The position numbers and the translations under genes were made by a program. Of a stretch of 64,000 nucleotides of DNA, positions 10,553 to 57,917 are shown one piece after another (the first letter of the stretch is position 1; each line of letters begins with the position of its first letter). The stretch is taken from IMG/VR virus record IMGVR_UViG_3300035663_000011, positions 3,364-67,363 of that record. One strand, 5' to 3'. The DNA is from a virus. The notes under the pieces are model-generated. The model was not told where the DNA came from, searched no databases, and saw only the letters and a list, made by a program, of their open reading frames with translations.

Positions 10553-10578
10553 GCCCCCGGTAACACGGGGGCTTTTTT
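10553..10578 (+). terminator. Rho-independent terminator at the convergence of replication and late arms
   Basis: gcccccg-gtaaca-cgggggc followed by T6. Confidence 0.85.
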
Positions 10579-17208: not shown

Positions 17209-18792
17209 TTAGATACCGAGTGCTTTGCGCAACGCGTCGTCTGACATACTTGAATACGGACCACTACCGCCAGTCAACGGTACCCCACCAATACCCCCAC
17301 TCGCTGCTGCCCGCATCTGCGATTCCAGAGTACTTACCTTTTTCTGCGCAGCAGCAATTGCAGCTTTATGCTCCGGAGATTGGGGCTTTATTCCGACTGG
17401 AGGAAAATCGGTAACAGCGTTCAATCGCTCCACAGCCGCTTTATACATCGGGTCTAGCATATTAATCGTCAACGCAGAACGACGGTACTCGTTCTGCCCA
17501 CTATTTGCTCCGTACTGCTGGGATGCAATACGCTCACGCGAAGCAATTTCCGCTTGGGAGATCAATGCAGATTCACGACGTGCGGTAAGGTCTGCAATCC
17601 TGTCTTCTTTCTTCTCCTCAAACGAACGCTTGGCGTTACGTTCCCCACGCGCTACCTCATCTTGGTAACGACGAAGCGATGCCATTTCCTTGTTCAGTTC
17701 CTTCTCGGTCTGACGGAGTTCTTTCTGAGCAGCCGTATACTGCTGCATCCCGCCCAGCGCACCTTCCGCCGCCGCACCAAGGAAGCTAGTACGCTCACGT
17801 CCCCCACGAGCCGCAGCCGCAGCCATACGGAACCCTGCTTGTGCGAGCGCCATACGAACCGCATCCTGCTTTTCGCCTCCAAGTCCCGCCAGAGCCTTCT
17901 CAATACGTTTCTGCTCTTCGGGGGAGAAGGAATCTGCGGTTTCTTCAAACTTGCGTCCTTCTACCTGCTTGATCAGTGCATCAAACCGATTCTTTGGTAC
18001 TCCCGCTCCGCTAGGCGGAGCAAACGGAGACGCAGCCGGAGGAACCGCTGGGGGCATATCCTGCTGTACGCCAGCACGAGCCGCAGCAATCTGCTGATCA
18101 AACCCAGCACCGCCCAACGCAGGAGCAGCGGGAGGCGCAGCCGCCGGGGCCGCAGGGGGGACTGCGCTTTGTGAAGGAGTTACAGTAGGTGTCTGCGCAG
18201 GACGTGTTTCTTGTTCATCGCCAAATATTTGCCCCAAATATTTATCAACTTTGGATATACCGGAATCTGACGGCAATTCACGTCTGCTTAGCTGCCGCCC
18301 TGCTGCCCGAAGAATTTCATTCTCTTCTGGGGTACGGAACACCGGAGATTTCTGAAGAATGCGATGTACCTCGGCTTCCAGATCAGGCTCTCCACCACCA
18401 GCCAACGCGACCACGCCACCGCCTGCAAACTGCGGATACTCCATGTTGCCCGCATCAATTGCACCCAAACCGCGATCCATTGGACTGGGCTGAGGAGCCG
18501 GGGCCTGCATCTGCTGAATATTGCCTTGCTGACGCTGCATCTGCTGCTGTTGGTCCAGCATGTTCAACTGATCTTTGATCGTCGGGGGTGTCTGGGGAGC
18601 CTGTGCCTGCGGCTGCTTTAAACGCTGGAACTGATTCATCATGGCGTAGAGATCAGCCAAGGGAGCCACGCCCTGCGTTGCCATGCTCTTGACGTACTGA
18701 ACCGCCTGATCAGGCGGCATACCTTTTTGGACGGCTTGTTGAAGCGAAGCCATCATGGCACGACCCGTGCCGCTTACTGGACCGAACATCAC
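17209..18792 (-). CDS. Putative internal virion/ejection protein
   Basis: 527 aa, Q/P/A-rich plus coiled coil, FAGGG/LAGGG motifs; synteny. Confidence 0.6.
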   Translation of the reverse strand: MMFGPVSGTGRAMMASLQQAVQKGMPPDQAVQYVKSMATQGVAPLADLYAMMNQFQRLKQPQAQAPQTPPTIKDQLNMLDQQQQMQRQQGNIQQMQAPAPQPSPMDRGLGAIDAGNMEYPQFAGGGVVALAGGGEPDLEAEVHRILQKSPVFRTPEENEILRAAGRQLSRRELPSDSGISKVDKYLGQIFGDEQETRPAQTPTVTPSQSAVPPAAPAAAPPAAPALGGAGFDQQIAAARAGVQQDMPPAVPPAASPFAPPSGAGVPKNRFDALIKQVEGRKFEETADSFSPEEQKRIEKALAGLGGEKQDAVRMALAQAGFRMAAAAARGGRERTSFLGAAAEGALGGMQQYTAAQKELRQTEKELNKEMASLRRYQDEVARGERNAKRSFEEKKEDRIADLTARRESALISQAEIASRERIASQQYGANSGQNEYRRSALTINMLDPMYKAAVERLNAVTDFPPVGIKPQSPEHKAAIAAAQKKVSTLESQMRAAASGGIGGVPLTGGSGPYSSMSDDALRKALGI

Positions 18793-21700
18793 TTACCTCC
18801 GATCCCGCCGAAGAGACTACCCAGCCCCAATCCTACACCGGCAATCTGCCCGAACAAGCTCCCCGGCTGCTGGTACATGGTCTGGGTCTGGCCCGTCGCC
18901 GGGAGGCCCCGCAGGATACCCGACATGAACTCCAACTGCTGGTACGGTAGACGCTGCTGGTTGAGGAAGTCCTGATACTGCGTATTGAGCAGTTCCTGCC
19001 CAAGAGCCTGCTGCTGCCCGCCAGCCCCCAACTGAGCCGCGTTGATCCCCATCTGCTGCTGGTACTGCTGCATCCCCAGCCCGCCCAGAGTGCCCGCCGC
19101 AGCCAACTGCTGCTGAAGCCCCTGCAAGCCAAGGTTCGCCCCGAACTGGCGAGACTGCTCGGCAAGATTGGCCCCAGCAAGCCCGTACTGAGCGCGTTGC
19201 GCGGCATTCTGCTGACTGAACTGGTTGGCCTGCGACAACTGAGCCAACTGCTGCTGTTGCTGCTGAAGCTGAGCCGCCTGATTCAACTGCTGGGCCTGCA
19301 TCCCTTGCCCTGCGCCGAACTGCGACTGGTTGATGAGGGCCTGAAGGTTCTGCTGACCGACGTTGAACCCCATCTGCTGATTGGCAAGCTGTGCCTGCAA
19401 TGCCTGACTCGACCCCAACTGCTGGGTCTGAAGGAGTGCCGCGAGGTTCTGCTGCCCCGTAGTGAGACCCGCCTGCTGATTGGCGAGGGCTGCTTGAAGC
19501 CCCATTTGGTTAGTCTGAAGACCTGCCGCTTGGTTAAGTCGGGCAATTTCAGTTGCCTGCTGGGCACTGAGACCTTGAGTCTGGAGTTGAGCAGCGAGGT
19601 TCTGCTGTGCGGTCGTAAGTCCTGCTTGCTGATTGGCAAGGGCTGCTTGAAGCCCCATCTGGTTAGTCTGAAGACCTGCCGCTTGGTTAAGTCGAGCAAT
19701 TTCAGTTGCCTGCTGGGCGCTAAGACCCTGAGTCTGGAGTTGAGCAGCAAGGTTCTGCTGCGCGGTCGTAAGTCCTGCTTGCTGATTGGCCTGTTGCGCC
19801 TGCATTGACTGCTGGCTCAAGAACTGCTGCCGCGCCTGCTCCATCTGCGCATTCTGCTGATTGGTCGTGAGACCCGCCTGCTGGTTGGCAAGAAGTGCCT
19901 GCAAGCCGTACTGCTGGTTAGCCATACGCGCCTGTTGTTCAGCCGACAGGTTCTGCTGCCCCACGGTAAGCCCCGCAGACTGATTGAGCCGCTGAGCCTC
20001 CATCTGCGCCTGCTGGTTAGCCAGAGCAGCCTGCTGCCCTGCCGAGAGGTTCTGCTGCCCCACGGTGAGGTCTGCTGCCTGATTGAGCCGTGCAGCCTCC
20101 ATAGCCTGCTGGGCGCTGAGTCCTTGGGACTGAAGTTGTGCAGCCAGATTCTGCTGCCCCACGGTAAGCCCTGCCTGTTGATTGGCAAGCTGGGCCTGCA
20201 TTGACTGCTGCGCACCGAACTCCGCCGACCGCTGGAATGCCTGCTGGTTAGCCATCGCGGCTTCTTGCTGCTTGGCCCGGTAGAACTCCGCTTCACGCTG
20301 TGCGGTTTGCTGGTTGGCAAGTTGGGCCTGAAGACTCTGCTGCCCCATGAATTGCTGGCGCGACTGTTCCGCGCCGAGGTTCGCCTGACCGACCGTAAGG
20401 CCCGCCTGCTGGTTTGCCAACTGCGCCTGAAGCGACTGTCCTGCACCCAACTCCTGAACGCCCATCGCCGCTTGGAGGTTCTGACGAGCGACATCCTGTG
20501 TCGCCGCTTGGTTAGCAAGTGCAGCCTGCATGGCCGAAGCGCGGTCGCGTTCAAACTGAGCAGACGACTGCTCGTAGGCTTTCTGAAGGCCCCCCGCCTC
20601 GATATCCCCCAACTGGGTCGCCAGATTCCGCTGGGCTTCAGACTGGAGCAAAGCCTCGCGGGTACCGCCCCGCGCTCCCATCCGAGCCGCCTGTGCGCCA
20701 AGAGCGGGGAGTCCTCTCATGTAATCGCGAGTCGCTGCTTGCTTCTGACGCTCAACGACGCTCTGCATGTAGGGCGACATGTATTCAAGCATCGAACCAA
20801 GACCGAACCGCTCAGTGCCTACCCGCTCCGCCGGTCCCATCCGATACTGTTCAAGTGCCGCAGCGCGTACACGCTCGGCAGGGGTCATCGACAGCGCCCC
20901 GTACTGATACCCTTGAGCGCGTTCTACGTCATAGGCAGAAGGGCCAGAAATACGCTCCGGGGCGTAGTCATACGTGGATGCTGCCCGTTCGTAACCCCCC
21001 ATCTGAGGAGCGTTGTACTCACGCGCCGAAACATCCCGCACCGGACCCATACGCCCAGCCGAAACTTGTGACGCCAATACGTTAGGTAGCCCCGCCATCT
21101 GCGCGGCTTGAATCCGCTCAGCAGAAACATCCGTAGGGCCAGCCATCCCGACAGGGCCGTACTCACGAGCAGAAATCTGCTGCGGTCCCTGCATCTGATA
21201 ATTTTGAAGCGCCTGCTGCTGGATACGCTCATAGTCACTGGGTGCCCGGACATTGCCCGGTCCCTGCATCTGATAATTTTGAAGCGCCTGCTGCTGGATA
21301 CGCTCATAGTCACTGGGTGCCCGGACATCGCCCGGTCCCTGCATCTGATAATTTTGAAGCTGCTGTGCCGAGACATCACGCGGTCCCTGCATCTGATAAG
21401 ACGTATCTGGGCGAGCGTTCACCCGCTCAAACTGGGTCTGCATCTCCCGAAATTCGGGAGAGTTGTAGAAATTCTGCGCGGCAGCAGGGTTGTACTGACT
21501 GAGTCTCTGCGCATCCAATCCAGCAAGCGAGGCTAACCCCGTGGCAGTACGCAACTGATCAGAGGTCTGCATCCCCGCAATCTGATTGAACGCCTGCATT
21601 TGCAGGGGATTGAACCCTTCAACACGCTGCCGCATTTTGGGCTTGCCCGTGCTGGGGTCTATGATCGGGTTGCCGTTTTTGTCCGTCTCTACATAGGGCT

Positions 21701-21806
21701 GATAACCTTGCTGAGACAACGCTTGAGCCTGCCCCACAAGTTGAAGTACGGGGTCTCTAAGCCAGCTAGGAATATTGGTTTGAATCTGTTCAGTAGGCGT
21801 AGCCAT
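18789..21806 (-). CDS. Gln-rich repeat protein, putative ejection/pilot protein
   Basis: 1005 aa; repeated QAQLANQQAGLTVGQQNL; hydrophobic Gly-rich C-terminus. Confidence 0.65.
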   Translation of the reverse strand: MATPTEQIQTNIPSWLRDPVLQLVGQAQALSQQGYQPYVETDKNGNPIIDPSTGKPKMRQRVEGFNPLQMQAFNQIAGMQTSDQLRTATGLASLAGLDAQRLSQYNPAAAQNFYNSPEFREMQTQFERVNARPDTSYQMQGPRDVSAQQLQNYQMQGPGDVRAPSDYERIQQQALQNYQMQGPGNVRAPSDYERIQQQALQNYQMQGPQQISAREYGPVGMAGPTDVSAERIQAAQMAGLPNVLASQVSAGRMGPVRDVSAREYNAPQMGGYERAASTYDYAPERISGPSAYDVERAQGYQYGALSMTPAERVRAAALEQYRMGPAERVGTERFGLGSMLEYMSPYMQSVVERQKQAATRDYMRGLPALGAQAARMGARGGTREALLQSEAQRNLATQLGDIEAGGLQKAYEQSSAQFERDRASAMQAALANQAATQDVARQNLQAAMGVQELGAGQSLQAQLANQQAGLTVGQANLGAEQSRQQFMGQQSLQAQLANQQTAQREAEFYRAKQQEAAMANQQAFQRSAEFGAQQSMQAQLANQQAGLTVGQQNLAAQLQSQGLSAQQAMEAARLNQAADLTVGQQNLSAGQQAALANQQAQMEAQRLNQSAGLTVGQQNLSAEQQARMANQQYGLQALLANQQAGLTTNQQNAQMEQARQQFLSQQSMQAQQANQQAGLTTAQQNLAAQLQTQGLSAQQATEIARLNQAAGLQTNQMGLQAALANQQAGLTTAQQNLAAQLQTQGLSAQQATEIARLNQAAGLQTNQMGLQAALANQQAGLTTGQQNLAALLQTQQLGSSQALQAQLANQQMGFNVGQQNLQALINQSQFGAGQGMQAQQLNQAAQLQQQQQQLAQLSQANQFSQQNAAQRAQYGLAGANLAEQSRQFGANLGLQGLQQQLAAAGTLGGLGMQQYQQQMGINAAQLGAGGQQQALGQELLNTQYQDFLNQQRLPYQQLEFMSGILRGLPATGQTQTMYQQPGSLFGQIAGVGLGLGSLFGGIGGK
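19474..19790. repeat. 153-bp tandem duplication (51 aa) in the Gln-rich gene
   Basis: Units start near 19475 and 19628; the 51-aa peptide is identical. Confidence 0.85.
21184..21360. repeat. 75-bp tandem repeat (25 aa), about 2.3 copies
   Basis: ggtccctgcatctgataattttgaagc at 21184, 21259 and 21334. Confidence 0.9.
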
Positions 21807-21818
21807 GATCGCTCCCGA

Positions 21819-24374
<2,556 letters not shown>

Positions 24375-24407
24375 AGTCCCCCCACGGGGTTAATTTGCTA
24401 GAAGATA

Positions 24408-25004
24408 TCACGTATTGGCCTCGTTACTCGATACCCAGTTCACCGTCAAGATGATCGACGGAATCGCCGGAATATTGCCGCTGGCTGCGACGTAGGGCAT
24501 GACGACATTCGTGTCGGAAGACTCCCACGCGAGTTCAAAGTAGTCCCCTGCCCCCATGACCAGCACGAAATTCCATGCCGCGACGACTTCGTCGTTGGGG
24601 CCGTTGATCACCATCTTGGTGGCGGAGTCTGGTAGGTTCACCCCGTTCACTCGGGGCCAGATGTATACGGCGCTCGCTCCACCGCCCGTCTTGTCCAACT
24701 GAGCAGAGAACTGGAAGTTGTACACCCCAGTCTGGTTGATATAGACCTTAGACGTAGGGATAGACCGGTTGACTTGATGTTCTGAAATAACAGAGTTGTA
24801 CGTGAAGAGATTGACCGCGTTGGCTACCGGGTTCGTCTGCGTTGTAGTGTCGTAGTAAGACGCATGGGGCATCGGAGCATTGACTGTGTTCGTCAGCCGC
24901 GTGAAGAAAAGCCTCAGTACGTTGGAGAACTGATCGTGGTACCGCTGCTCATAAACAGTCGGAGCATTCGGCAAATTCGGTGGTACGACTTTGGCGTACG
25001 ACAT
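24408..25004 (-). CDS. Virion structural protein
   Basis: 198 aa, beta-rich C-terminus (GVYNFQFSAQL), follows the tail nozzle gene. Confidence 0.6.
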   Translation of the reverse strand: MSYAKVVPPNLPNAPTVYEQRYHDQFSNVLRLFFTRLTNTVNAPMPHASYYDTTTQTNPVANAVNLFTYNSVISEHQVNRSIPTSKVYINQTGVYNFQFSAQLDKTGGGASAVYIWPRVNGVNLPDSATKMVINGPNDEVVAAWNFVLVMGAGDYFELAWESSDTNVVMPYVAASGNIPAIPSIILTVNWVSSNEANT

Positions 25005-25006
25005 AC

Positions 25007-28201: not shown

Positions 28202-28203
28202 GG

Positions 28204-28476: not shown

Positions 28477-28898
28477 TGTGGTTCCTCTCCGAGTGACCCG
28501 TAGCTGATAGCAGGGGTGGGAATAGTAGATATAGACGCTGCTGTAAACGTCAGCGAATATACCGGTTCAGGAGGGGGGATCACAGGCTCAGGAGGGGGCG
28601 GAGGTTCGACAGGAACGACAGGCTCAGGAAGGATCGGGGGTTCAACAGGAACGACAGGCTCAGGAGGCGGTACAAACTCATCAATATCCGCACGGTAGGT
28701 GTAGCCGACCCCCGCGTAATTCTTGCGGAAGTTTCCATTGTATGAAGTTTGCACCCAAGTACCACCTAAAAGACGCTGGCAAAATTCTATTCCTTTGGCT
28801 TCTGATTCTTCGCCGTCGCTGTCGATTAGTTCAGCATTGCTTACGACAATGACCTGCGTCACGACATTATTTTCGTCAAGTTTTGCGAAATGAGCCAT
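28473..28898 (-). CDS. Fibre-associated protein with Pro-rich C-terminal repeats
   Basis: MAHFAKLDENNVVTQVIVV..WVQTSYN..RKNYAGVGYTY; PEPVVPVEPP repeats. Confidence 0.7.
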   Translation of the reverse strand: MAHFAKLDENNVVTQVIVVSNAELIDSDGEESEAKGIEFCQRLLGGTWVQTSYNGNFRKNYAGVGYTYRADIDEFVPPPEPVVPVEPPILPEPVVPVEPPPPPEPVIPPPEPVYSLTFTAASISTIPTPAISYGSLGEEPQ

Positions 28899-28900
28899 GA

Positions 28901-31732
28901 TTAGAAGGTTATGGTTCCAGAAGAGTTGAAGATGTAAACGCGGAACCCACCAGAAACCGAGACTGTCGGGCTTCCTGTGGTAACCGCTGCCGGGAGTGTA
29001 TCCGAGTATTTGATGACGACAATCCCTGACCCGCCCGCTTTTCCGTAAGCATTTGGGATAGTACCGCTCCCGTCACCTGCACCGCCGCCATCCCCACTAT
29101 TCGCAGTTCCGGCGCTTCCACCGGTAAATCCTCCGGTACCTCCGGTACCGTAAGTAACAGAAGTCCCGGTTATCGAGTTCGCAGTCCCCACGCCTCCGGT
29201 CGGAGTGCCACCTGCACCGCCTGACCCACCACCACCCCCAGCGGTCAAAGTTCCCGGCCACGCGCCAGACCCTGTACTACCCCCGCCGTTATATCCTTGA
29301 ACGGGCGTCGCAGAAGGAGTATTACCTGCACCGCCACCGCCAGTAGTGATACCGCCGCCGCCGGCGTCTTGTTGGTAAGACCCGCCGCCGCCTCCAGACC
29401 CGCCGGATGCTCCGTTGGCGGGAATAGTGCCGTAACTAGAACCATTACCGCTGCCACCTTTGGCGGATGTCACACCCCAAAAACTAGAGTCGTTCCCAGA
29501 GGCATTACGTGCGCCACCCGCACCTACAACTACCGCATACGTAAATCCACGAACAATTTGGAAAGCGGTGCTTGTTCGGTAGCCTCCTGCACCGCCGCCG
29601 CCGCCCGGAGCCAGATATCCCGAACCGGGGGTAAGATCAACACCGCTGTCAAACCCACCACCACCACCTGCGACTATCAAATACTCGATGTTGACGAGCG
29701 CCCCACCTCCAATAAGCGGGAACGCCGCAGTCGGCGCGGTAAAGTTGGCGGTGTAGCGGGCAACGCCTTTGGTGATGCGCAGGTCGTCAATGTAGCCGTT
29801 CAATGGAAGCGGGGAAGCCGCGCCTTGCCCATCGCCAACTCGCAATGGAAGCGTAGAGTCAAGCGAAGGGGTTCCAGTAAACGTGGAACCAATCTGTGTT
29901 CCGTTTAAAAACAGCCTAATCGCGCCGGATTGCCCAGAAACAGCAAGGTGGTACCAAGTTCCTGTTGCCGCAGGGGTTGATGTAGATATGTCAGGCGTGT
30001 CGCCTGTAGCCCAAAACGCAAAATTGCCACTAGAAATTCCAAGACCCCATCCAATGGAATTATTTTGATAGTTGCTTAAAGCGTATTGAGTTCCGCTTGC
30101 ATTGTTAAAATAAATCCAAAGTTCAGCCGTAAATGGCCCTGAACCAAAATTTGCCGTTAGCACGTTTTGCAACGGCAGATAATCCCCCGTTCCATCGAAC
30201 GCAATGGACGAGCCGCCCCACTTGCTCTGTGCCGTGCTGATCTGCGCATTACCTACGGTCTCTAGGTCGTTCTTGGCAGTCGCGTCAAGGACACCTGCGT
30301 TGGTGAAGTTGAGCAGGAGCGAGGTGCCGGAGATAGCGGTAAGCGGTGCGGTCGGAGGCGTGAAGTTGGCCGTGTAAACGGCGGTGCCTTTGACGACGCG
30401 AAGGCTCCCCATAAAGCCTTTCATATGCCCAGACGCACCGGGGTACTTGCCAATCGTAAAACTGGCCGATCCTTTGTTTCCGGTGTCAGTAGCGGGAGTT
30501 CCTTCAGATACTCCGTTGACGTACAGCGTGACCGTTCCGCTAGAGCGAACAACCGCGATATGCGCCCATTGATTAAGAATGTTTGTCGTGCCGGTAATTA
30601 CCGTCCCAAGACTTCCGTTGTCACAGTATTGAGCAACGCCCGTCGTTGTTGTTACGTGGCCAATTTGAATTGATGACGTGCCATTAACGTCGGTCGCAAA
30701 GAACCGTCTGTTTTGAGTGTCAACAGATGCATCGGTGGAATAGACCCACATTTCCACCGTGAAATTGCCCGTCCCCATATCAAGGGCGGCGTTGGTTGCA
30801 AGCGTAAGAAAATCCCCGCTTCCATCAAAAGACCCGCTCCCGCCGTTGGCGGCTGCGCTGTACGCTGCCGTGGGGTTGAACGGGCTGAAGGCTTGAACGG
30901 ACACGTCACCGTTGCGGGTGATCGTGAAATTGTTGGTCGAGTTGTCTACGAAGCGGTTGCTCTGGCAGGTGAGCAGGGAGGTATTGGTAATGGCGGTAAG
31001 GGGTGCGGTAGGGACGGTGTAGGTCGCGCCAGAATAAACCGCAGTTCCTTTCACAATGCGCACATTGGACAAATAGCCAGTTAACAAATTGGAGCCGGTA
31101 ACATTTGCGCCTATCAAAAGAGAGTAAGTGTTATTTAGGTCATGCCCCCAAGAGGCATCTTGGTCTCCACGAGTTCCGTTTGCATAACAGCTCAAGGTCG
31201 TCCCAGAACGCACAAATGCAAAATGAATCCATGTGGAAAGAGAAACTACGGGCGTAGCCCTTGTAGTAGTTTCTGCCGCGCAATTCATGTTGATTTTTTG
31301 ATTAGTGGCGTCCCACGCAATACGCCAAGCCCCACTAGTAAAAGTAGGGTCATCTCTTTTTGAGATCAATCCATCGCCGTCAACCCCGGCTGTTGAAAAA
31401 TAAACCCAGCCTTCAATGGTGAAATCCCCAGTCCCAAGGTCAAGCGCAGCGTTATCAGCGATGCTTAAATAATCCCCGCTTCCATCAAAGTAGTTTCCCC
31501 ACCCCGTCTGTGAGAACGGCGAGAACGTACCCTGCGTCGTGTTGCCGTTGCGGGTGATGCTGAAGGCATTCGTGGACGAGTCAAGGAACGTGTTGTTCTG
31601 CGCTCCGTTCGTGCCGTTACCGGGCAGGAGCAGCGTGACGTAGTTGAAATACTGATCCACTGCTTGTACGACAGAACCCAAGAACCCGTAGGCTCTAGCC
31701 GCCGCTACTGCAAGACGACTGATTACAGGCAT
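28901..31732 (-). CDS. Tail fibre/adhesin with three LamG (concanavalin-like) domains and Gly-rich C-terminus
   Basis: Three FDGxGDxL..FTxE.W.Y..W.H.A..G.....R..KG repeats; AGGGGG/GGSGIVVI Gly-rich domain. Confidence 0.85.
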   Translation of the reverse strand: MPVISRLAVAAARAYGFLGSVVQAVDQYFNYVTLLLPGNGTNGAQNNTFLDSSTNAFSITRNGNTTQGTFSPFSQTGWGNYFDGSGDYLSIADNAALDLGTGDFTIEGWVYFSTAGVDGDGLISKRDDPTFTSGAWRIAWDATNQKINMNCAAETTTRATPVVSLSTWIHFAFVRSGTTLSCYANGTRGDQDASWGHDLNNTYSLLIGANVTGSNLLTGYLSNVRIVKGTAVYSGATYTVPTAPLTAITNTSLLTCQSNRFVDNSTNNFTITRNGDVSVQAFSPFNPTAAYSAAANGGSGSFDGSGDFLTLATNAALDMGTGNFTVEMWVYSTDASVDTQNRRFFATDVNGTSSIQIGHVTTTTGVAQYCDNGSLGTVITGTTNILNQWAHIAVVRSSGTVTLYVNGVSEGTPATDTGNKGSASFTIGKYPGASGHMKGFMGSLRVVKGTAVYTANFTPPTAPLTAISGTSLLLNFTNAGVLDATAKNDLETVGNAQISTAQSKWGGSSIAFDGTGDYLPLQNVLTANFGSGPFTAELWIYFNNASGTQYALSNYQNNSIGWGLGISSGNFAFWATGDTPDISTSTPAATGTWYHLAVSGQSGAIRLFLNGTQIGSTFTGTPSLDSTLPLRVGDGQGAASPLPLNGYIDDLRITKGVARYTANFTAPTAAFPLIGGGALVNIEYLIVAGGGGGFDSGVDLTPGSGYLAPGGGGGAGGYRTSTAFQIVRGFTYAVVVGAGGARNASGNDSSFWGVTSAKGGSGNGSSYGTIPANGASGGSGGGGGSYQQDAGGGGITTGGGGAGNTPSATPVQGYNGGGSTGSGAWPGTLTAGGGGGSGGAGGTPTGGVGTANSITGTSVTYGTGGTGGFTGGSAGTANSGDGGGAGDGSGTIPNAYGKAGGSGIVVIKYSDTLPAAVTTGSPTVSVSGGFRVYIFNSSGTITF

Positions 31733-32799
31733 TACGCAAACCTCGTCTGCGAGGCAAACACCGAGAACGTCGCGGAAGCGGTCTTGATGATGGTGTACGA
31801 GTACGCATCAACACTTGAGGCGTTACCTGCGGTCGGAGCCGTACCGCCCTGCCACCGGGTCGTTACACCAGAGGTCGTGCCGTCTACCTGAACCGTCGTG
31901 TTGTAGTACGCCGTAGCGCCGTTGGTCACAAGGAATACGACCGTGATGGCCTGTCCGGTGGAAAGCAGTGTGTTGAGCGAAGTGCCCGCAGAACCCCGCA
32001 CATTGACCGTCCAGTTAGCCGAAGCGTTGGTCGTGTAGAACAACACCGACTGCGTGGTGACATCGTAGTTGATCGTTCCGGTCGCTGCCGTGGCCGATAC
32101 GGTCGTGGTCTCTGCGGCGTCGGTCAGGACTGCGGCAAGCGTGGAGGAAGACCCGCTAAACGTCTGCGTGGCTGTGAACGTGGTTGCCGTGCCGGGGGCG
32201 ACGTAATCCGTTCCTGCGGTCGCGGCAGAGAACGCCAACGCCCCATTGCCCTTCAGGATGCCGGTAACCGTAGATGCGCCTGTGCCGCCGTTAGGAACGG
32301 TCAGAACCCCAGTCACTCCAGTGGTTAGCGGGAGGCCCGTAGCATTGGTCAGCACCCCAGATGAAGGCGTTCCGAGTGGGCCACCGTTGAGCAGATACGT
32401 CGAAGCATTAACGATGTCCGTGCCGTTGGAGACAAGAACGACCTTACTGCCGTTGGGTACAGAGACACCTGTCTGGCCTGAAACCTTGACGGTCACCTGA
32501 CCGGACGAAGTGTTGTTGTAGATGAAGTAGAGCTTCCGATTGGCAGGGACGATCAGATTGGTATTGGTCCCGCCCGTACCCGTCAACTCGATGTACATGT
32601 TCCGGGCCACGCCTGTGGACCCGCTCGGAATCGTAATCGTCGTGTCCGTACCCGTGGCTACGGCTTGGGTGACATAGCCTGAAATCGCCTGCTCGATAAG
32701 CGTTCCGAGGTTGGTGTTGGTCGTGGACCCCCAAGTACCTGCCTGATCGCCTGTACCGATCAGTTCTAGGGCCAAATTTGTGCTGAATGTACTCGGCAT
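31732..32799 (-). CDS. Proximal tail fibre protein
   Basis: GTWGSTTNTNL N-terminus, LTNATGLPL / V.NGGTGA fibre repeats, T/S/G-rich. Confidence 0.75.
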   Translation of the reverse strand: MPSTFSTNLALELIGTGDQAGTWGSTTNTNLGTLIEQAISGYVTQAVATGTDTTITIPSGSTGVARNMYIELTGTGGTNTNLIVPANRKLYFIYNNTSSGQVTVKVSGQTGVSVPNGSKVVLVSNGTDIVNASTYLLNGGPLGTPSSGVLTNATGLPLTTGVTGVLTVPNGGTGASTVTGILKGNGALAFSAATAGTDYVAPGTATTFTATQTFSGSSSTLAAVLTDAAETTTVSATAATGTINYDVTTQSVLFYTTNASANWTVNVRGSAGTSLNTLLSTGQAITVVFLVTNGATAYYNTTVQVDGTTSGVTTRWQGGTAPTAGNASSVDAYSYTIIKTASATFSVFASQTRFA

Positions 32800-32809
32800 T
32801 TACGTCACC

Positions 32810-33088
32810 TTACGCCGCTATGGGCGTCCAATTCGGATTTTGTCCTGTTCCAACACCTGTCCAGTTCGGATTTTGTGTAGGGTCTATGACTACCCAAATG
32901 ATAACTGATCCTACATACCCTGTCGCTGAGACGCCGGTCACAGGGACCAGCGTTTCCAAAAATACCGTGGGTGTCCCAACTGCTCCTGTCCCAGTTGGTA
33001 AAGAGGCAACACCCTGCCCCCAACCCTGCTCGCCCCAGCCTACGCCAGAGGCATTCCAGCCCTCAAATGCGACAACGACATCGGTCAC
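32810..33088 (-). CDS. Small virion protein
   Basis: GWG repeats, QNPNWT repeats. Confidence 0.6.
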   Translation of the reverse strand: MTDVVVAFEGWNASGVGWGEQGWGQGVASLPTGTGAVGTPTVFLETLVPVTGVSATGYVGSVIIWVVIDPTQNPNWTGVGTGQNPNWTPIAA

Positions 33089-33534
33089 GCAATCCTCAAG
33101 ATCGCCGTAGTCGAGGATGCAGCCGGGAATTGGATCGTGAAGTTACCAGCCGTAGCCGTCTTGTCACTGCCAAACGCCAGCACTGCAACTGCTTTGTCCC
33201 CCTGCGAAGCGTTGTAGATCAACGCCCCATTCGCAGTCAGAGACACGTTAGTGAACACTGCGTCATCGAAATCAAGCCATGCCGTCGTACCAGACGAAGT
33301 CGGTACCTGAGAGACGGTCAGCACAATTCCGCCCGCCGTGTAGTTCGTACCCGTGACCTCATCCACAGTCGTGTAGACCGTCGTAGATGCGCCCAGATTG
33401 GCCGAGGACGTATAAAGCGCAATCTTGAACGTGTCCGGAGTCGTACTGGCACGAACTACCGTAGTTCCTAGAGCATGGATTCCATTCAGAATCTCTACCT
33501 TGAACGAAGTGACCATCGCTTGGGAAATCGGCAT
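33085..33534 (-). CDS. Conserved virion (tail-associated) protein
   Basis: MPISQAMVTSFK..FKIALYT..GALIYN..FTIQFP; GGAG RBS. Confidence 0.7.
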   Translation of the reverse strand: MPISQAMVTSFKVEILNGIHALGTTVVRASTTPDTFKIALYTSSANLGASTTVYTTVDEVTGTNYTAGGIVLTVSQVPTSSGTTAWLDFDDAVFTNVSLTANGALIYNASQGDKAVAVLAFGSDKTATAGNFTIQFPAASSTTAILRIA

Positions 33535-33535
33535 A

Positions 33536-33772
33536 TCAGTCTCCGAGACGCGCTGCCGCGTCAGCAAAACCTTCTTGAACCAACCGCGTCTTCACATCCT
33601 GAAGTTTTGAATCCTGCGCTTCGACCAAGTACTTGACCAGCACCCGGTGCAGTTCTTCCTTCGTCGTGATATGCAACAGGCGGTAGATCGCTCGTTCGGC
33701 AATCTCTTCCGGCGTGGGGCCACGGTTATCCGTGGTGAAGACCTCGACGGTACCGATTTCTCCAGTCATCAC
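33536..33772 (-). CDS. Hypothetical late protein
   Basis: 78 aa, translationally coupled. Confidence 0.6.
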   Translation of the reverse strand: MMTGEIGTVEVFTTDNRGPTPEEIAERAIYRLLHITTKEELHRVLVKYLVEAQDSKLQDVKTRLVQEGFADAAARLGD

Positions 33773-34419
33773 TGGGGCACCCTCATCGGCTGAATTCTCG
33801 GCTGTCCTGAGCGGTACGCATCGCCTCTCTCAAGCCCATCACCCAACCGAACCAACTGCTGCATGGCTTCCTGATACTTGGCCTCATAGTTCTGCATCAG
33901 GTCAGCTTCGCCCTTGAGGTAGGTATACGCCTCGCGCAAACACCCATACAACAGGATTTGCTCAAAGTTATCCCCAATCCAAGAAGTGCCCGCCGTAACG
34001 ATGGATTCTGGATAGTAGAAGTAATGCAGTTCCGTTGTGTAGTTCAGATCGGGCGTAGGTCCAAGAATTATCGTCGTGGGGTTCCACACCGCGTAGTAGT
34101 CAGGCTGTCCAGTATCCGCCACGGTCGGGTACGCTGAACGGATGTAGTTCACATCCTTGTTGAACAGAAACTCATACTCGTTCGTTACCGGGTTGATCAC
34201 CGCCATCGAATACGTCGCCAGCCAATCGGAGGGCAGGGTCATGTACTGGAACCCCGCCGTCATGTTGCCCGTGACATACTTCTTGAGCGCCGGGATCAGG
34301 ACCGAGTTGTAGATGCGCTTCTCGGCAACTTGGACAAACGTAGGAATATTGGCTACGAAGGACTGCTCCGTAGACTCACAGTATTCCTGAATCAGTTGGT
34401 TAAGCTGCGCGTAGTTCAT
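33769..34419 (-). CDS. Head-tail adaptor / tail tubular A-like protein
   Basis: F...AE.RI, G.P.YYA..GPTPD..Y, LLYGCL.EA. Confidence 0.7.
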   Translation of the reverse strand: MNYAQLNQLIQEYCESTEQSFVANIPTFVQVAEKRIYNSVLIPALKKYVTGNMTAGFQYMTLPSDWLATYSMAVINPVTNEYEFLFNKDVNYIRSAYPTVADTGQPDYYAVWNPTTIILGPTPDLNYTTELHYFYYPESIVTAGTSWIGDNFEQILLYGCLREAYTYLKGEADLMQNYEAKYQEAMQQLVRLGDGLERGDAYRSGQPRIQPMRVPQ

Positions 34420-34607
34420 TAGCTCCAGCCTGCGCGGACCTTACCTGCCTTGGTCAGATTGATCTGCGACACAAATTTCGTGCCCTTGGTGGCAGCGCCA
34501 GCGCCACGCATCTTCATGTGCGTAACGCCACTGTTGATGTCCTTCTCCGGGTAACCGTTCTCACCCGTCGATTCGGTGTTCTTCTTGATCTTGCCTGAGT
34601 CCTTCAT
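34419..34607 (-). CDS. Small basic protein
   Basis: 62 aa, RGAGAATKG motif. Confidence 0.65.
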   Translation of the reverse strand: MKDSGKIKKNTESTGENGYPEKDINSGVTHMKMRGAGAATKGTKFVSQINLTKAGKVRAGWS

Positions 34608-34612
34608 GGAGA

Positions 34613-34804
34613 TTACCTCGGACCCGAAGACTTACGCATCGGACTACGCTGATTCATGACCTTCGCCATGTTGCGTCCGTACTGCTTCATTTCGCTGTTG
34701 GTCTTGCCACCAGCACGGAAGCCCTTGACCTTCTTGCCATGAGCCTCGCTTGCAGGCTTGGCAGCATGGCGGCGAAGCGCCTTCATCGCGTCATTGTTCC
34801 TCAT
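34613..34804 (-). CDS. Small basic protein with FxxGG motif
   Basis: 63 aa, FRAGG; AGGAG RBS. Confidence 0.65.
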   Translation of the reverse strand: MRNNDAMKALRRHAAKPASEAHGKKVKGFRAGGKTNSEMKQYGRNMAKVMNQRSPMRKSSGPR

Positions 34805-34813
34805 GGGATTCTC

Positions 34814-35191
34814 CTAAGTAGTCACTACGGTGACTGTTCCAACATAGCCAGTCGGGGCAAGCGAATTGGGGGTCAGCCCAGCATCGACTCCACTTGCTCC
34901 ACCTACGGGGTTCCACCCCCACTCAAACATTCTGCTGCCGCCAGCACCGTCATTGCCGGGGGCATAATAACTCAAATCCGGGCGGGGATTACGCACCGCC
35001 TGCGGGTCACTGACTGGGTAAAGCCCCAGCGACAACTGCGGCTGATCCGGCTCCCAGCACTCCGGGCAGACCAAGAGATTGATGTTCTTGGTCTTGATGA
35101 CCAGCGTCTTCAACTGCTTCAGTTTGTACCGAAACCCACACCGGTCGCACTCTGCGATAGCGTGTTTGCCGGATGAGAACCGAGTACCCAT
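34814..35191 (-). CDS. Conserved zinc-ribbon late protein
   Basis: CDRCG...VCPECWEPDQPQL..DPQAVRNPRPD. Confidence 0.7.
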   Translation of the reverse strand: MGTRFSSGKHAIAECDRCGFRYKLKQLKTLVIKTKNINLLVCPECWEPDQPQLSLGLYPVSDPQAVRNPRPDLSYYAPGNDGAGGSRMFEWGWNPVGGASGVDAGLTPNSLAPTGYVGTVTVVTT

Positions 35192-35192
35192 A

Positions 35193-35912
35193 TCAGCCTA
35201 TGAAGCTCTCACGGGGGACGAACCTGTCCGGGGCTTTCTCTCGGTCCTCACCAGCCGCCAAATCCCAAGCCTCGTCATACTGAGCCTTGAGCGCGGCCAT
35301 CCGCTCCATCCCACCGGGCACCTTCATCGAGAGGTAGTACGCCAGCCCTGCGACCATACATGGCATGAACCTGAATGGGATGTCCTGACCGTTAACCCCA
35401 GTCCCCGGATCAAACATCCGTCGCAGGCGCGTGTAGACGAGCGTCCACGTAGTCGTGTTGTCGGGCTTCGGCCAGACGGTGAACTGCGGGTACTGAACCA
35501 CCCCAGCGGAGTTGGTCGCGCCAGACTTGCGCTGAATCCAAATCTGGATTGGACGCCCTGTCGCGTTCTTGTTGGGGATCGACAGGTAGGTACTGGACGA
35601 AATGCGCGAGATATTGATGTCCTGCTGGTTGGTACCCGTACCGGTTCGGATCACGTGGTCAAGCAGGTCTACAGTATCCACCGGCAGGTCGTAGGTCCCC
35701 TGCTCGTAGGTCAGCACCTGCGTACCCGTATCCAGCGTCCAGAGGTTGATTCCCCGGTTCGCCCAGTCCATGAGTAGCAGCGAAAGACTACGCTTCGCAG
35801 TACGGAACTCGTACCCGGTCCGCATTTCAGCCCCACAACGCTCGTAGGCTTCCTCAATCAGGATATTGAGGTCGAGGTTGAAATCGGTGGTGTTTGTAGT
35901 CCTGTAGGCCAT
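35193..35912 (-). CDS. Head-tail connector/adaptor protein
   Basis: IEEAYERCG..WANRGINLW..GRP.Q..P.RF.PC..AGLAYY. Confidence 0.7.
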   Translation of the reverse strand: MAYRTTNTTDFNLDLNILIEEAYERCGAEMRTGYEFRTAKRSLSLLLMDWANRGINLWTLDTGTQVLTYEQGTYDLPVDTVDLLDHVIRTGTGTNQQDINISRISSSTYLSIPNKNATGRPIQIWIQRKSGATNSAGVVQYPQFTVWPKPDNTTTWTLVYTRLRRMFDPGTGVNGQDIPFRFMPCMVAGLAYYLSMKVPGGMERMAALKAQYDEAWDLAAGEDREKAPDRFVPRESFIG

Positions 35913-35933
35913 TACTTTTTACTCTTGGACTTC

Positions 35934-36179
35934 TTACTTGCCCGCTTGGCGATAGCTGCGCGTTTTAGCAGCAATACCTTTGGGTTGTTGTACGAACTGC
36001 TTACCTTGCGCCTTGCCTTTACGCTTGGCGGCGGTGGTTCGGGCGTACTCGGAAGGGGAGAGGGCTTTGATCGCAGCCTCTGGAAGATATCTTTCACCCG
36101 TGTCAGAAGATCGTTTACCACTCTTCGTCCTCCACTTCTGCTGCGTCCAAGCCTTCAATGACTGCTGAGGAGCCTTCAT
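35934..36179 (-). CDS. Small basic protein (DUF5872-like C-terminal half)
   Basis: QQSL..WT.QKW.TKSG..GERYLP..A..AL..GKQFV. Confidence 0.7.
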   Translation of the reverse strand: MKAPQQSLKAWTQQKWRTKSGKRSSDTGERYLPEAAIKALSPSEYARTTAAKRKGKAQGKQFVQQPKGIAAKTRSYRQAGK

Positions 36180-36472
36180 GACTTATACCCGCCGCCCTTT
36201 TCCTTGTAGCGTTTAGCCAACAACTGCGCCTTCCGCGCCGACCACTGCCCCGCACCTGTACCCTGCGTTGCTGAAGACTTGATGGACTCAAACAACTTCT
36301 TACGCATACCGGGCTTGGTGTAGTTACCGGCCTCGTTGACCTTGCTCTCGCCACCTTCCTTGAACGTCTTGATCGGCTTGCCAGTACCGATGACAGGCGC
36401 GCCATCACCCCGCCGTCTAGCGCGGGGCAACTTGGACTTCGCAACCGCGCCCATGCCGCGAGACGGTATCAC
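36176..36472 (-). CDS. Small basic protein (FxxGG motif plus DUF5872-like N-terminal half)
   Basis: FKEGG; NYTKP..GQWSARKAQLLAKRYKEKGGGY. Confidence 0.7.
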   Translation of the reverse strand: MIPSRGMGAVAKSKLPRARRRGDGAPVIGTGKPIKTFKEGGESKVNEAGNYTKPGMRKKLFESIKSSATQGTGAGQWSARKAQLLAKRYKEKGGGYKS

Positions 36473-36585
36473 GACGGAGTCGCCTTCGGTTTGACCTTCG
36501 CCCCCCTGACAAACTTCACTTCGTCCTTCTTGGGGAGAGCCGCCTGCTTCTTCGGCTCTTCGTACTGTCGTGCAAGGTTCTTCAT
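36469..36585 (-). CDS. 38-aa basic peptide not in the ORF track
   Basis: MKNLARQYEEPKKQAALPKKDEVKFVRGAKVKPKATPS; coupled to both neighbours (TGATG / GTGA overlaps). Confidence 0.55.
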   Translation of the reverse strand: MKNLARQYEEPKKQAALPKKDEVKFVRGAKVKPKATPS

Positions 36586-37184
36586 CAGATCATCCGACCT
36601 CGGGTCTTGCCCTTCGTGGCACAGCCGTCAGCCCGCTTGGAAGCGGAGGAAACGGACCCGCCGGAAGCATAACGTTTCACAGACCCGCCACGTTTATAGC
36701 CCTGCGCTGTTGGATTTTTACGCATAGCTTTATATGCGTCATCCAAAGTAACAATTGTGGGCTTAGGCCGATTACCCCCCGGCTTACCGGGGGCTTTTTG
36801 GTTTCGTACTTTATACCGCGCTTCATCACGCATCGCTTGAGATGGGGCTTCATCAACTTCCGCCCCCGCAGCAATAGCTCTGGGGTTGGGTCTTACCCGC
36901 CCTTCTTTTGCAAAATCAACGCTTGGAGTTTTACCCTCTTTTGCAAAATCTACTGCTGCTTCTTTTGTCTTTTTGTCTTCCTTCATCTCGGTCGTGTACT
37001 TCTTTCCACGCCAAGTGAACTCATCGAGGCCCTGCTTGCGGGCTTCTCTAAACGCATCCTTAAAACTAATGTTAGACCCGCCAGCACTACCGGATTCAGC
37101 ATAACTAGTCATGCCGGGAACTTTGCCACCTTCCACAAATCGCTTCATGCCGTAGCGGGGACCGAACTTCGTAGGCTTCTTCAT
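36585..37184 (-). CDS. Basic protein with three xxGG motifs and shared C-terminal module
   Basis: FVEGG, YKRGG, YASGG; SFKDAFREARKQG..FTWRGKKYTT mini-domain; C-terminal RADGCATKGKTRG. Confidence 0.7.
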   Translation of the reverse strand: MKKPTKFGPRYGMKRFVEGGKVPGMTSYAESGSAGGSNISFKDAFREARKQGLDEFTWRGKKYTTEMKEDKKTKEAAVDFAKEGKTPSVDFAKEGRVRPNPRAIAAGAEVDEAPSQAMRDEARYKVRNQKAPGKPGGNRPKPTIVTLDDAYKAMRKNPTAQGYKRGGSVKRYASGGSVSSASKRADGCATKGKTRGRMI

Positions 37185-37237
37185 ACAAACTTTCCTCGGG
37201 TCTTGCCCTTCGTGGCACAGCCGTCAGCCCGCTTGGA
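36598..37237. repeat. 44-bp identical direct repeat at 36598-36641 and 37194-37237
   Basis: cctcgggtcttgcccttcgtggcacagccgtcagcccgcttgga, encoding SKRADGCATKGKTRG in two adjacent genes. Confidence 0.9.
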
Positions 37238-37459
37238 CGCCGACGAAACAGAGCCACCAGAGGCGTACTTCTTCTCAGGCTTCTTAGGCGCTTTCGGCTT
37301 GGGCGGCGGAGTAGAAGCGCCGTACCCAAACTGACGCCATTCCGGAATCACCGACTTTTCCGGCAGGTTCCCTCGCGGGGTCAAATCGTCCGAAGACGAC
37401 GGAGGCGGGGGCGGAGGAGGCGGTGGGGGCGGCGTAGGCTTTTTGTCTTTCTCAGCCAT
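37181..37459 (-). CDS. Small Pro/Lys-rich protein with shared C-terminal module
   Basis: Poly-Pro, YASGGSVSSASKRADGCATKGKTRG. Confidence 0.65.
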   Translation of the reverse strand: MAEKDKKPTPPPPPPPPPPPSSSDDLTPRGNLPEKSVIPEWRQFGYGASTPPPKPKAPKKPEKKYASGGSVSSASKRADGCATKGKTRGKFV

Positions 37460-37815
37460 CAGCAAGCACCGCCCATACGCATCTTGATCTGCTTACCCTT
37501 GGTCTTGCCCTTGGACGCAATGCCATCAGCAGCACGACGGAACGAGCCGACAGAGCCACCGCTCTTCATGCCGTACTCGGCCTTCTCATGCTTGACCATC
37601 GACTTCGGAGCGCCCTTCTTCTTCATGAAGGCAATCTCCTTCTTCGCCATTTCTTTCGAGTGTTTCATTGTTCCTCCGGAACCAAATTTGCGGCCCTTAT
37701 CGGCCTCAGCGTAATCACGACCCACAGATTGAGGGATTCCAACACGCTTGGCTGCTTTGGGGTCATGAGCAACCATCGCCATCAAACGATGCTGAGCCGC
37801 AGACTTACTCGGCAT
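37459..37815 (-). CDS. Small basic protein with three xxGG motifs
   Basis: MPSKSAAQHRLM; FGSGG, MKSGG, MRMGG; ADGIASKGKTKG. Confidence 0.7.
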   Translation of the reverse strand: MPSKSAAQHRLMAMVAHDPKAAKRVGIPQSVGRDYAEADKGRKFGSGGTMKHSKEMAKKEIAFMKKKGAPKSMVKHEKAEYGMKSGGSVGSFRRAADGIASKGKTKGKQIKMRMGGAC

Positions 37816-57887: not shown

Positions 57888-57903
57888 TAAACACCTGTTT
57901 ACA
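57886..57903. promoter_or_regulatory. Early-region palindrome, copy 8
   Basis: GATAAACA-CC-TGTTTACA overlapping the AAA stop codon. Confidence 0.7.
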
Positions 57904-57917
57904 TATCGGAGTGCAAC

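Follow-up and report, generated by a model that had tools for sequence, protein, structure and literature searches.

A hydrophobic-x-x-Gly-Gly tag shared by small basic late proteins and ejection-type proteins of a probable short-tailed phage leads into two conserved modules and may be an address label for virion-internal proteins

IMG/VR record IMGVR_UViG_3300035663_000011 is a virus sequence of 67,363 bp, judged to be a complete genome, of which a stretch of 64,000 nucleotides (positions 3,364 to 67,363 of the record; hereafter the window, in whose coordinates all positions are given) was analysed. Between positions 17,209 and 37,815 of the window, a series of small basic late proteins and two long ejection-type proteins share a peptide tag in which a hydrophobic residue is followed by any two residues and a Gly-Gly pair. 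This hydrophobic-x-x-Gly-Gly tag is a real short linear motif lying in disordered stretches, and does not appear to be free-standing: it forms the leading edge of two conserved modules, namely a basic C-terminal tail and a C-terminal module that is also found in tape measure proteins. The proteins that carry the tag most likely travel inside the virion, where it may act as a docking or address label, a reading that we favour tentatively.

From its gene content, the source appears to be an uncultured short-tailed phage akin to Synechococcus phage MinM2 and Pelagibacter phage HTVC023P, with relatives that are classed as Podoviridae (PMC9599517). Its capsid protein is 74% identical to those of MinM2 and of Planktothrix phage Pag-Yong1, 64% identical to that of HTVC023P and 41% identical to those of Caulobacter phages RW and GB2A. 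The minus strand holds all of the late genes, from about 10.5 to 51.8 kb, among which Pfam and PHROG scans recognized a terminase, a portal, a GroES-like protein, two SU10-type adaptors, fibres, an M15 peptidase, a virion protein of 762 amino acids (aa) and a Mu gpT-like major capsid protein of 302 aa. The proteins encoded between portal and capsid resemble a scaffold and a decoration-type protein; the probable scaffold is a 325-aa protein rich in Glu, Lys and Gln, for which a scaffold was the sole, weak lead in the ESM Atlas. At the end of the operon, where short-tailed phages keep their ejection proteins, lie genes for proteins of 851, 1005, 527 and 2209 aa, in the same order as in MinM2. 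Pfam and PHROG scans of the open reading frames (ORFs) of the window matched no family of tail tubes, sheaths or tape measure chaperones.

All 17 copies of the motif listed in a preliminary description of this DNA were found in minus-strand ORFs. In the small basic proteins, which are glycine-rich and contain 19–27% Lys plus Arg (K+R), these are FGSGG, MKSGG and MRMGG in sb118, YASGG in sb94, FVEGG, YKRGG and YASGG in sb199, FKEGG in sb98 and FRAGG in sb63; the 851-aa protein carries FAMGG, YAEGG, VRKGG, MQAGG, FAAGG and YLAGG, and the 527-aa protein FAGGG and LAGGG. Counts of [FYM]xxGG were compared with 2000 shuffles of each protein set, performed either over whole proteins or within 25-aa blocks, which preserve local composition. 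The seven small basic proteins (715 aa) contain nine copies against 0.92 (whole-protein) or 1.12 (block) expected, a number that was reached in none of the 2000 shuffles, and the 851-aa protein also contains nine, against 2.2 or 2.6 expected (p = 0.0005). The tag was not enriched in the 527-aa protein (1 observed; 0.4 or 0.6 expected), the 1005-aa protein (0; 0.8 or 1.1), the 2209-aa protein (1; 1.6 or 1.7), the remaining late proteins (8; 8.8 or 9.7) or the early proteins (3; 2.3 or 2.7). Since the set of small proteins had been picked after the motif was seen, and since three of its nine copies belong to a single paralogous C-terminal module, the enrichment test was repeated on related loci.

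IMG/VR was scanned for the pattern with an alignment of the sb94 family; 523 loci were confirmed and 80 of them retained, each from this phage lineage. The capsid gene, where it lies on the locus (45 of 80), is 80–94% identical. Gene order is fixed, running from the portal through the GroES-like, 325-aa, 149-aa, 280-aa and capsid genes to a variable stretch, followed by an adaptor, a 125-aa protein, a second adaptor and a 160-aa protein, and the variable cassette between capsid and adaptor measures 2.7–6.6 kb in the 36 loci on which both flanks are present. With 'basic' defined as at least 17% K+R, the 215 distinct basic cassette proteins of these 36 loci (25,569 aa) contain 273 motifs against 28.6 naively expected, compared with 27 against 19.5 in 150 non-basic cassette proteins and 82 against 54.6 in 452 proteins encoded beyond the cassette. 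By the counts in the window and in the related loci, the tag lies far above what composition predicts and is limited to the small basic late proteins and to proteins of the ejection type.

Residue preferences were measured at every isolated Gly-Gly pair, without preselecting the hydrophobic residue. Phe, Tyr or Met stands three residues ahead of the pair in 243 of 415 cases (59%, against a background of 9%), and at all remaining neighbouring positions in 3–21%. Val two residues past the pair is enriched 6.8-fold and Lys directly ahead of the hydrophobic residue 2.3-fold; as a consequence, the flanks initially read by eye (K/R before the tag and x-V after it) prove to be right. The consensus is K-[M/Y/F]-[A/K]-[K/E/S]-G-G-[S/K/M]-V, and Met is its commonest hydrophobic residue (110 of 243; 46% in another count). 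A Shine–Dalgarno-like or internal-start origin of this Met-rich tag was considered and rejected, since Tyr and Phe together outnumber Met and the codons vary. Placement is also constrained. Thirty-four of the 273 tags have at most four residues after the Gly-Gly and 59 carry it at a fixed 20–24 residues from the C-terminus, so that 93 occupy fixed C-terminal positions, while a single one lies within the first five residues; 125 of the 215 basic cassette proteins either finish in the tail described below or hold a Gly-Gly within their last eight residues. Tandem tags recur at a spacing of nine residues.

The first of the two modules is a basic C-terminal peptide of 23 aa with the pattern ADG-x4-GKT-basic-G-basic-x-V/I. 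In sb94 (37181..37459, minus strand; 92 aa from the ATG, beginning MAEKDKK), a proline run is followed by KK-YASGG (37253–37267) and then by the tail, SVSSASKRADGCATKGKTRGKFV to the stop, with GCATKGKT at 37199–37222. The basic 199-aa protein sb199 (36585..37184, minus strand) begins with a mini-module, FGPRYGMKR-FVEGG (tag at 37125–37139), carries the tandem tags YKRGG (36684–36698) and YASGG (36657–36671) nine residues apart and finishes in the same tail as sb94 (GCATKGKT at 36603–36626). A third, diverged copy of the basic tail (E = 1.2e-10), with GIASKGKT at 37501–37524, is found in sb118 (37459..37815, minus strand; 118 aa, beginning MPSKSAAQ), the tags of which are FGSGG (37672–37686), MKSGG (37555–37569) and MRMGG (37468–37482), the last being two residues ahead of the stop. 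The three genes are contiguous, the start of sb94 overlapping the stop of sb118 and its stop overlapping the start of sb199, and their tails share the form K-K/R-Y-A-S-G-G-SVSSASKRADGCATKGKTRG-x-x-x-stop. The tagged proteins had been called otherwise unrelated, which therefore applies to them in part, since sb94, sb199 and sb118 have this paralogous tail, about 30 aa long, in common.

Among 5.8 billion proteins searched, 1175 clusters matched at E <= 0.01, of which the best 120 were compared. All 120 have unrelated N-termini with the same ending and contain GxxxxGK[ST]; ADG[C/I/V] is present in 118, Gly-Gly in 117 and the strict tag ahead of the tail in 103, and the spacing from Gly-Gly to ADG is eight residues in 93. 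Among longer proteins, 210 matched at E <= 1e-3, and 118 of the 120 listed (166–500 aa) finish in the tail; one has a non-basic N-terminal part of 470 aa with a weak match to part of a family of giant phage proteins. A search of 185,579 species genomes located the tail 18 times, always on contigs of metagenome-assembled genomes that belong to the same phage lineage, which identifies it as a phage module, apparently restricted to this lineage. Assignment of a host from these 18 contigs was rejected, since their labels span many phyla and are most likely binning errors. Comparison of the two close copies in the window shows that nine of the ten codons of YASGGSVSSA differ synonymously between sb94 and sb199 with no residue change, which argues for selection on the peptide rather than on the DNA; the next 14 codons (37199–37242 in sb94 and 36603–36646 in sb199, about 44 nucleotides) are identical in DNA, pointing to recent gene conversion between the paralogous tails.

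The small basic proteins had no BLAST match in cultured phages. Syntenic genes of MinM2 that BLAST leaves unmatched bear the same tags (YAKGG, YASGG with the tail, MKKGG, YADGG and YAVGG), and in that phage YAEGG precedes the second module. The PDB yielded nothing for the tail in sequence and profile searches. GxxxxGK[ST] is the consensus of the Walker A motif, and short peptides of this kind can bind phosphate. The GxxxxGKT of the tail fits that pattern in a disordered-protein context with no nucleoside triphosphatase (NTPase) domain matched, and its likeness to a P-loop NTPase appears to be one of pattern only; a phosphate- or DNA-binding loop is a speculative reading of it.

The second module makes up the C-terminal part (21819..22124, minus strand; about residues 751–851) of the 851-aa ejection-type protein (21819..24374, minus strand). 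It is led in by VRKGG, MQAGG, FAAGG (22104–22118) and YLAGG (22074–22088) and, as the translation confirms for what had been described as a GPGDGMSDSIPA...GEFV domain, continues to GEFV (21972–21983) and a terminal helix, the layout being YxAGG-KLL-x-GPGDGMSDSIPA...ADGEFV-IPADVV...helix. More generally, the pattern is GPGxGxSDSIPA...GEFV, often with a second tag after the helix. A HMMER search with the last 153 residues against 1.84 billion representatives matched 9,323 representative clusters with E <= 1e-3, of which 5,978 reached E <= 1e-10, and in all of the 150 listed matches (121–1509 aa) the matched stretch stops within about ten residues of the C-terminus. In an alignment of 38 sequences, G58 and G59 of FAxGG and Y65 and G69 of YxAGG are invariant and G68 is nearly so; one to three further tags usually precede these two in relatives of the module. 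Of 15 full-length relatives that were aligned, 13 have retained the internal tag FAMGG of the 851-aa protein (residue 326; 23385–23399) and 13 its internal tag YAEGG (residue 392; 23187–23201). The protein has no match in Pfam (E up to 10), NCBIfam or PHROG, and neither of the two modules matched a family in these three collections.

The 527-aa ejection-type protein (17209..18792, minus strand) carries a tandem tag, FAGGG-VVA-LAGGG (18391–18429), that closes its conserved N-terminal part and is followed by a long coiled coil. The pattern F-A-G-G-G-I/V-V-A-F/L-x-x-G-G is present in 119 of 120 aligned proteins, and for this reason the 527-aa protein belongs to the finding, although its count alone is not significant. 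With the invariant columns and the internal tags of the 851-aa family, this is the positional conservation in homologues that the preliminary description had called for. No similarity was detectable between the 527-aa protein and the 533-aa protein of MinM2, so the tags of the latter are not positional homologues. In the AlphaFold2 model of the 527-aa protein (pTM 0.29), which contains coiled coils, residues 90–135 have a predicted local distance difference test score (pLDDT) below 50 and the helices at residues 337–497 have scores above 90; the model of the last 153 residues of the 851-aa protein has a mean pLDDT of 56 and a single helix, with residues 40–71 below 50.

The kinship of the second module extends to the tape measure proteins of long-tailed phages. 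A tblastn search with the last 103 residues of the 851-aa protein found the tape measures of six Burkholderia siphophages (38% identity, E = 5e-3; the E-values are modest) and, in addition, podophage homologues that are annotated as tape measures. In the tape measure of Burkholderia phage vB_SBP33, the gene of which adjoins genes annotated as minor tail protein L and tail tip assembly protein K, FSEGG is followed by GPGTSTSDSIPAMLSNGEFV and then by FATGG; in gp065c of Caulobacter phage GB2A, MARGG is followed by GPGTGRSDSIKANLSDGEYV and by YMDGG three residues from the end. The order tag, GPG..SDSI.A, GE[FY]V and helix can be read in these two proteins, in the 851-aa protein and in a 294-aa protein of MinM2. 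The Burkholderia piece of the module matches 37 phage records, from phages of Proteobacteria, Actinobacteria and cyanobacteria; of the 33 annotated ones 32 bear the label tape measure and one the label endolysin, and four are unannotated. The module thus occurs in the tape measures of many other long-tailed phages, where its place is not always C-terminal.

The link to lambda gpH drawn in the preliminary description, namely F/Y-A-x-G-G and GEFV motifs near a C-terminal region that is processed, is borne out by the gpH record, the last 130 residues of which hold FATGG, GEFV, YATGG, MRDGG and LFSGG, with four [FYM] tags against 0.5 expected; both gpH and GB2A gp065c stop two to three residues past a tag. 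The Gly-rich C-terminal region of gpH, about 14 kDa, is cut off during tail assembly at a site and by an enzyme that are not known (PMC12617516). In the tail tip, residues 818–849 make up a trimeric helix that sits on gpI (PMC12617516, PMC10721106), and the region of about residues 690–817, which holds tags and GEFV, is unresolved in the structure (PMC12617516). Cleavage likewise occurs in pb2 of T5, the C-terminal piece of which remains in the tip (bioRxiv 10.1101/2022.09.20.507954). If this piece, pb2C, comprises the last 92 residues, as stated in PMC12617516, that length by itself would put the cut, in the stretch of residues 1113–1142, at R1127/A1128, three residues ahead of a Gly-Gly (AEGG). 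In mycobacteriophage Douge, only the last 42 residues of the tape measure were modelled (PMC13033339).

The 851-aa protein and siphophage tape measures therefore have in common a hydrophobic-x-x-Gly-Gly tag, a Gly-rich stretch, GPGxGxSDSIPA (a part that lambda lacks), GEFV, a short helix and a second tag, all placed in a long protein, at or near its C-terminus, and such a protein has to leave through the tail ahead of the DNA. On the other hand, the phage that encodes the 851-aa protein is short-tailed and has no tail tube to measure, and lambda has nothing comparable to the spread of the tag over a row of small basic proteins. A whole-protein role as a tape measure was rejected in view of the missing tail tube, sheath and chaperone families, the short-tailed gene order and the SU10-type adaptors; the 851-aa protein appears to share a module with tape measures and is not filed as one. 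Sequence and profile searches of the PDB gave non-significant matches to a proteasome and to the Douge tape measure and nothing else. A crassvirus cargo domain, the nearest named cluster to the GEFV module in the ESM Atlas (0.81), was dropped, as it fell below the threshold for a lead and was unconfirmed by Pfam; the portions of the crassvirus structure paper that were consulted mention neither cleavage nor such a motif.

No protease was recognized that might act on the tag and one third of the tags of the basic cassette proteins occupy fixed C-terminal positions, which makes a docking or address label for virion-internal proteins the best reading, if still a tentative one. We infer that the small basic proteins are most likely present in the virion and dock there. 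The tag would bind a conserved partner in the virion and fold upon binding; candidates for this partner are the GEFV module of the ejection protein, the lumen of the portal or nozzle and the inner face of the capsid. The small basic proteins might then be swappable cargo modules, loaded together with the ejection proteins and leaving along with them. The conserved tag regions are unstructured in both AlphaFold2 models, as would be expected of a motif that folds on its partner.

Two known systems offer parallels. In phage T4, the capsid targeting sequence stands at the N-terminus, and the prohead protease cuts it off after Leu/Ile-x-Glu. Like it, the tag is a short peptide common to unrelated, partly basic proteins that would be carried in the head and injected, with cargo that can be swapped; it differs in its sequence, in its internal or C-terminal location and in that no prohead protease was found. 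With one tag of the 273 in the first five residues and no such protease in the scans, a capsid targeting sequence of the T4 type was rejected. The cargo-loading peptides of encapsulins dock uncut on the inner face of a shell of the HK97 fold. They are short, contain glycine, are mostly C-terminal and sit on unrelated cargo, and such an arrangement was indeed found here, in the proteins that finish in the tail (120 of 120 and 118 of 120 in the two listed sets) and in 125 of the 215 cassette proteins. The tag has a different consensus and is also present as tandem copies and in the interior of long proteins.

Several observations weigh against an address label. The one hint that places a small basic protein in the virion is a PHROG label on the first 42–52 residues of sb118, the N-terminal 42 of which match phrog_16759, phrog_22033 and phrog_25121, the latter two being labelled virion structural protein. 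The small basic proteins of HTVC023P carry few tags, and GB2A has a protein with the GEFV module but no basic cassette, so that module and cassette are separable. Among the 150 alignments of the 851-aa C-terminus, 33 start at FAAGG and just 52 within about six residues of any tag. The hhalign comparison with the C-terminus of lambda gpH is weak (probability 30.9%, E = 5.2e-4, 51 aligned columns) and the Douge tape measure found in the PDB profile search is not significant (E = 1.3). Finally, the tape measure counterparts are cut in lambda and T5, which leaves some weight with cleavage.

Among the alternatives, it is conceivable, if rather doubtful, that the tag is a sticker that condenses DNA, in which an aromatic residue or Met and the Gly-Gly would compact packaged DNA without a protein partner and the GxxxxGKT tail would serve as a small phosphate-binding loop. 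The basic and glycine-rich composition of the small proteins, the nine-residue spacing of tandem tags and the agreement of the tail with Walker A throughout its listed relatives (120/120 and 118/120) are in keeping with this proposal. The same tag, however, occurs in non-basic settings, namely the N-terminal part of the 527-aa protein, the linkers of the 851-aa protein and the ends of tape measures; Met, its commonest hydrophobic residue, fits poorly with cation–π stickers, and a near-invariant tail of 23 aa is more easily explained by a specific folded partner than by bulk DNA.

Cleavage at the tag is possible, and the preliminary description had seen in it a recognition site for a phage protease that acts as on a polyprotein. 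According to this proposal, which we consider unlikely, a phage or host protease would cut at or near the Gly-Gly, freeing basic peptides in the head and separating the modules of the ejection proteins, much as in adenovirus. In its favour, lambda gpH loses the corresponding region as a piece of about 14 kDa (PMC12617516) and the length-inferred cut in T5 pb2 would lie close to a Gly-Gly; the tags sit in linkers that are disordered in the AlphaFold2 models, and the fixed spacing from Gly-Gly to tail would yield a defined basic peptide of 23 aa. In addition, the zincin domain of polyvalent proteins has been proposed to process these proteins themselves (Iyer et al. 2017; PMC5512222). The 2209-aa protein (10577..17206, minus strand) is a polyvalent protein of this kind, with ART-PolyVal at residues 743–935, a C-terminal part that is DarB-like or PLxRFG and, as had been reported, an HExxH motif (HELGH at residue 1143).

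Against such a proposal, Pfam and PHROG scans of 67 ORFs revealed no prohead, adenain-like, C39 or other candidate protease, the sole peptidase families being the M15 cell-wall enzyme and an early DUF2201 metallopeptidase–VWA protein. The earlier remark that the head module holds no recognizable prohead protease is in agreement with these scans and with the scaffold-like appearance of the neighbour of the portal; the capsid protein, at 302 aa, aligns with its relatives from residue 1–2. Neither of the two proteases nominated at that stage holds up: in the HExxH protein the tag is not above chance (1 against 1.6 expected), and the GEFV module, in which no protease signature was matched, is predicted to be without a fold when monomeric. 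Cutting would gain little at the 34 tags that have at most four residues after the Gly-Gly, and together with the 59 at 20–24 residues from the end these tags fit docking better than the processing of a polyprotein. The notion of the tag as a cleavage site was therefore not borne out.

Comparison with known cleavage sites leads in the same direction. The consensus of the adenovirus protease has a hydrophobic residue at P4 of x-G-G in the precursors of core proteins. The resemblance lies in a hydrophobic residue a few places ahead of Gly-Gly in basic, DNA-associated virion proteins, but here this residue stands one place further away, Phe, Tyr or Met being present in 59% of cases at P5 and in just 3% at P4; given this shift and the lack of an adenain-clan peptidase in the Pfam scans, an adenovirus-type site was rejected. 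Double-glycine leaders are N-terminal and end in Gly-Gly, with a C39 peptidase or ABC exporter encoded nearby. Such a leader was also rejected, since the conserved part is C-terminal of the Gly-Gly, the N-termini are variable and the Pfam scans showed no C39 or ABC gene.

A wider form of the address reading, in which one code would run through the tailed phages, with the GPG..SDSIPA..GEFV module as reader and hydrophobic-x-x-Gly-Gly as ligand, is an improbable conjecture in all its parts. Binding of tags in trans would string tape measure or ejection proteins and small basic cargo into one chain; loading of this chain might take place at the portal or tail channel, and infection would draw it out in order. 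For lambda gpH, the cut would then be a release step of the same device, and the GxxxxGKT tail a natural minimal phosphate-binding loop that fastens the cargo to the end of the DNA.

It is very improbable that the tag is a neutral recombination joint, a tolerated flexible linker without function at which modules are shuffled. The unrelated N-termini ahead of the tail, the mini-modules that recur in different combinations and the 44-nucleotide identity of sb94 and sb199 with its sign of gene conversion would all be expected at such a joint. FAAGG is also the commonest start among alignments of the 851-aa C-terminus (33 of 150), and 40 of the 112 N-terminal BLAST matches of the 527-aa protein stop at residues 120–149, many relatives matching just the N-terminal 23–28% of the query up to the tag. 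A mere joint, however, would not keep a hydrophobic residue in 59% of cases against 9%, with the Val that follows and the Lys that precedes, would not stay invariant where its flanks are conserved as well and would not outlast synonymous change. A composition artefact of Gly- and Lys-rich low-complexity sequence, for which the 18% Gly of the 851-aa protein and its long poly-Gly runs (one of which contains both YGGGG and FGGGG) might speak, has next to no probability and was refuted by block shuffles that still give about one copy in the small basic proteins where nine are observed, by the matches in a 943-aa fibre protein with 17.7% Gly, which are mostly of the L/V type in Gly runs (plus YNGGG and YGTGG), by the conservation of tag positions, in 119 of 120 members of the 527-aa family among others, and by the counts in related loci.

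The route by which phages select the particle-borne proteins that they inject is known for very few systems, T4 among them, and a simple tag that is conserved across thousands of protein clusters bears on this question. It joins three topics that have so far been handled separately: short-tailed phages and their ejection proteins, the rows of small basic proteins that change fast in abundant aquatic phages, and the cut ends of tape measures, for which site, enzyme and purpose are still unknown in lambda (PMC12617516). Were the tag a loading label, it would offer a direct way to find injected proteins in metagenomes and to package proteins of choice in phage particles; were it a cleavage site, it would point to a missing protease. 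No published description of the tag or of either module was found in searches of the tape measure, GEFV and cargo-protein literature.

The remaining small basic proteins lie downstream of sb199. The basic protein sb98 (36176..36472, minus strand) carries FKEGG (36350–36364) ahead of a conserved C-terminal domain, phrog_17747, and has a homologue in 60 of the 80 related loci. A homologue of sb63 (34613..34804, minus strand; 63 aa, 27% K+R), with KG-FRAGG-KT (34706–34720), is present in 23 of the 80. The basic 62-aa protein sb62 (34419..34607, minus strand) is without a strict tag and contains a degenerate tail-like sequence, GAGAATKGTKF (repeat family D4). In relatives, a portable mini-module, MPDLTGDGK[V/I]TRADVLKGRGVF-[K/R]-x-GG, recurs ahead of tags; its pattern, DxxGDGxxxxxD, resembles a calcium-binding loop.

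The first 43 residues of sb118 (37687–37815) are a widely travelled mini-domain, 65–72% identical to small ORFs in 69 cultured phage records that include phiKZ-like jumbo phages (PHIKZ165.1) and phages of Stenotrophomonas, Serratia and Klebsiella. A 73-aa ORF (37805–38026), a putative gene with a hydrophobic, membrane-like segment, overlaps the start region of sb118; its own start, MEFVFGGSMKH, shares 76% DNA identity with FGSGGTMKH of sb118. In the 851-aa protein, positions 22752–22874 encode two unbroken glycine runs, of 24 and 12 residues, and after them PTKPTP repeats; these glycine runs may bring length variation or assembly errors.

Elsewhere in the window, the GroES-like (Cpn10) gene (46549–46926) lies between portal and scaffold and is kept in 19 of the 80 loci, a count limited by locus ends. 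The structural operon is interrupted by two endonuclease genes on the same strand (37999–38484 and 42498–43232), one endonuclease VII/HNH-like and adjoining the basic cassette, the other a GIY-YIG/NUMOD3 homing endonuclease gene directly after the capsid gene; the capsid gene of GB2A is likewise trailed by a homing endonuclease gene. In the early region, outside the head module, a gene pair on the plus strand (56814–59108) encodes a MoxR-like AAA ATPase and the DUF2201 putative metallopeptidase with a VWA-like domain.

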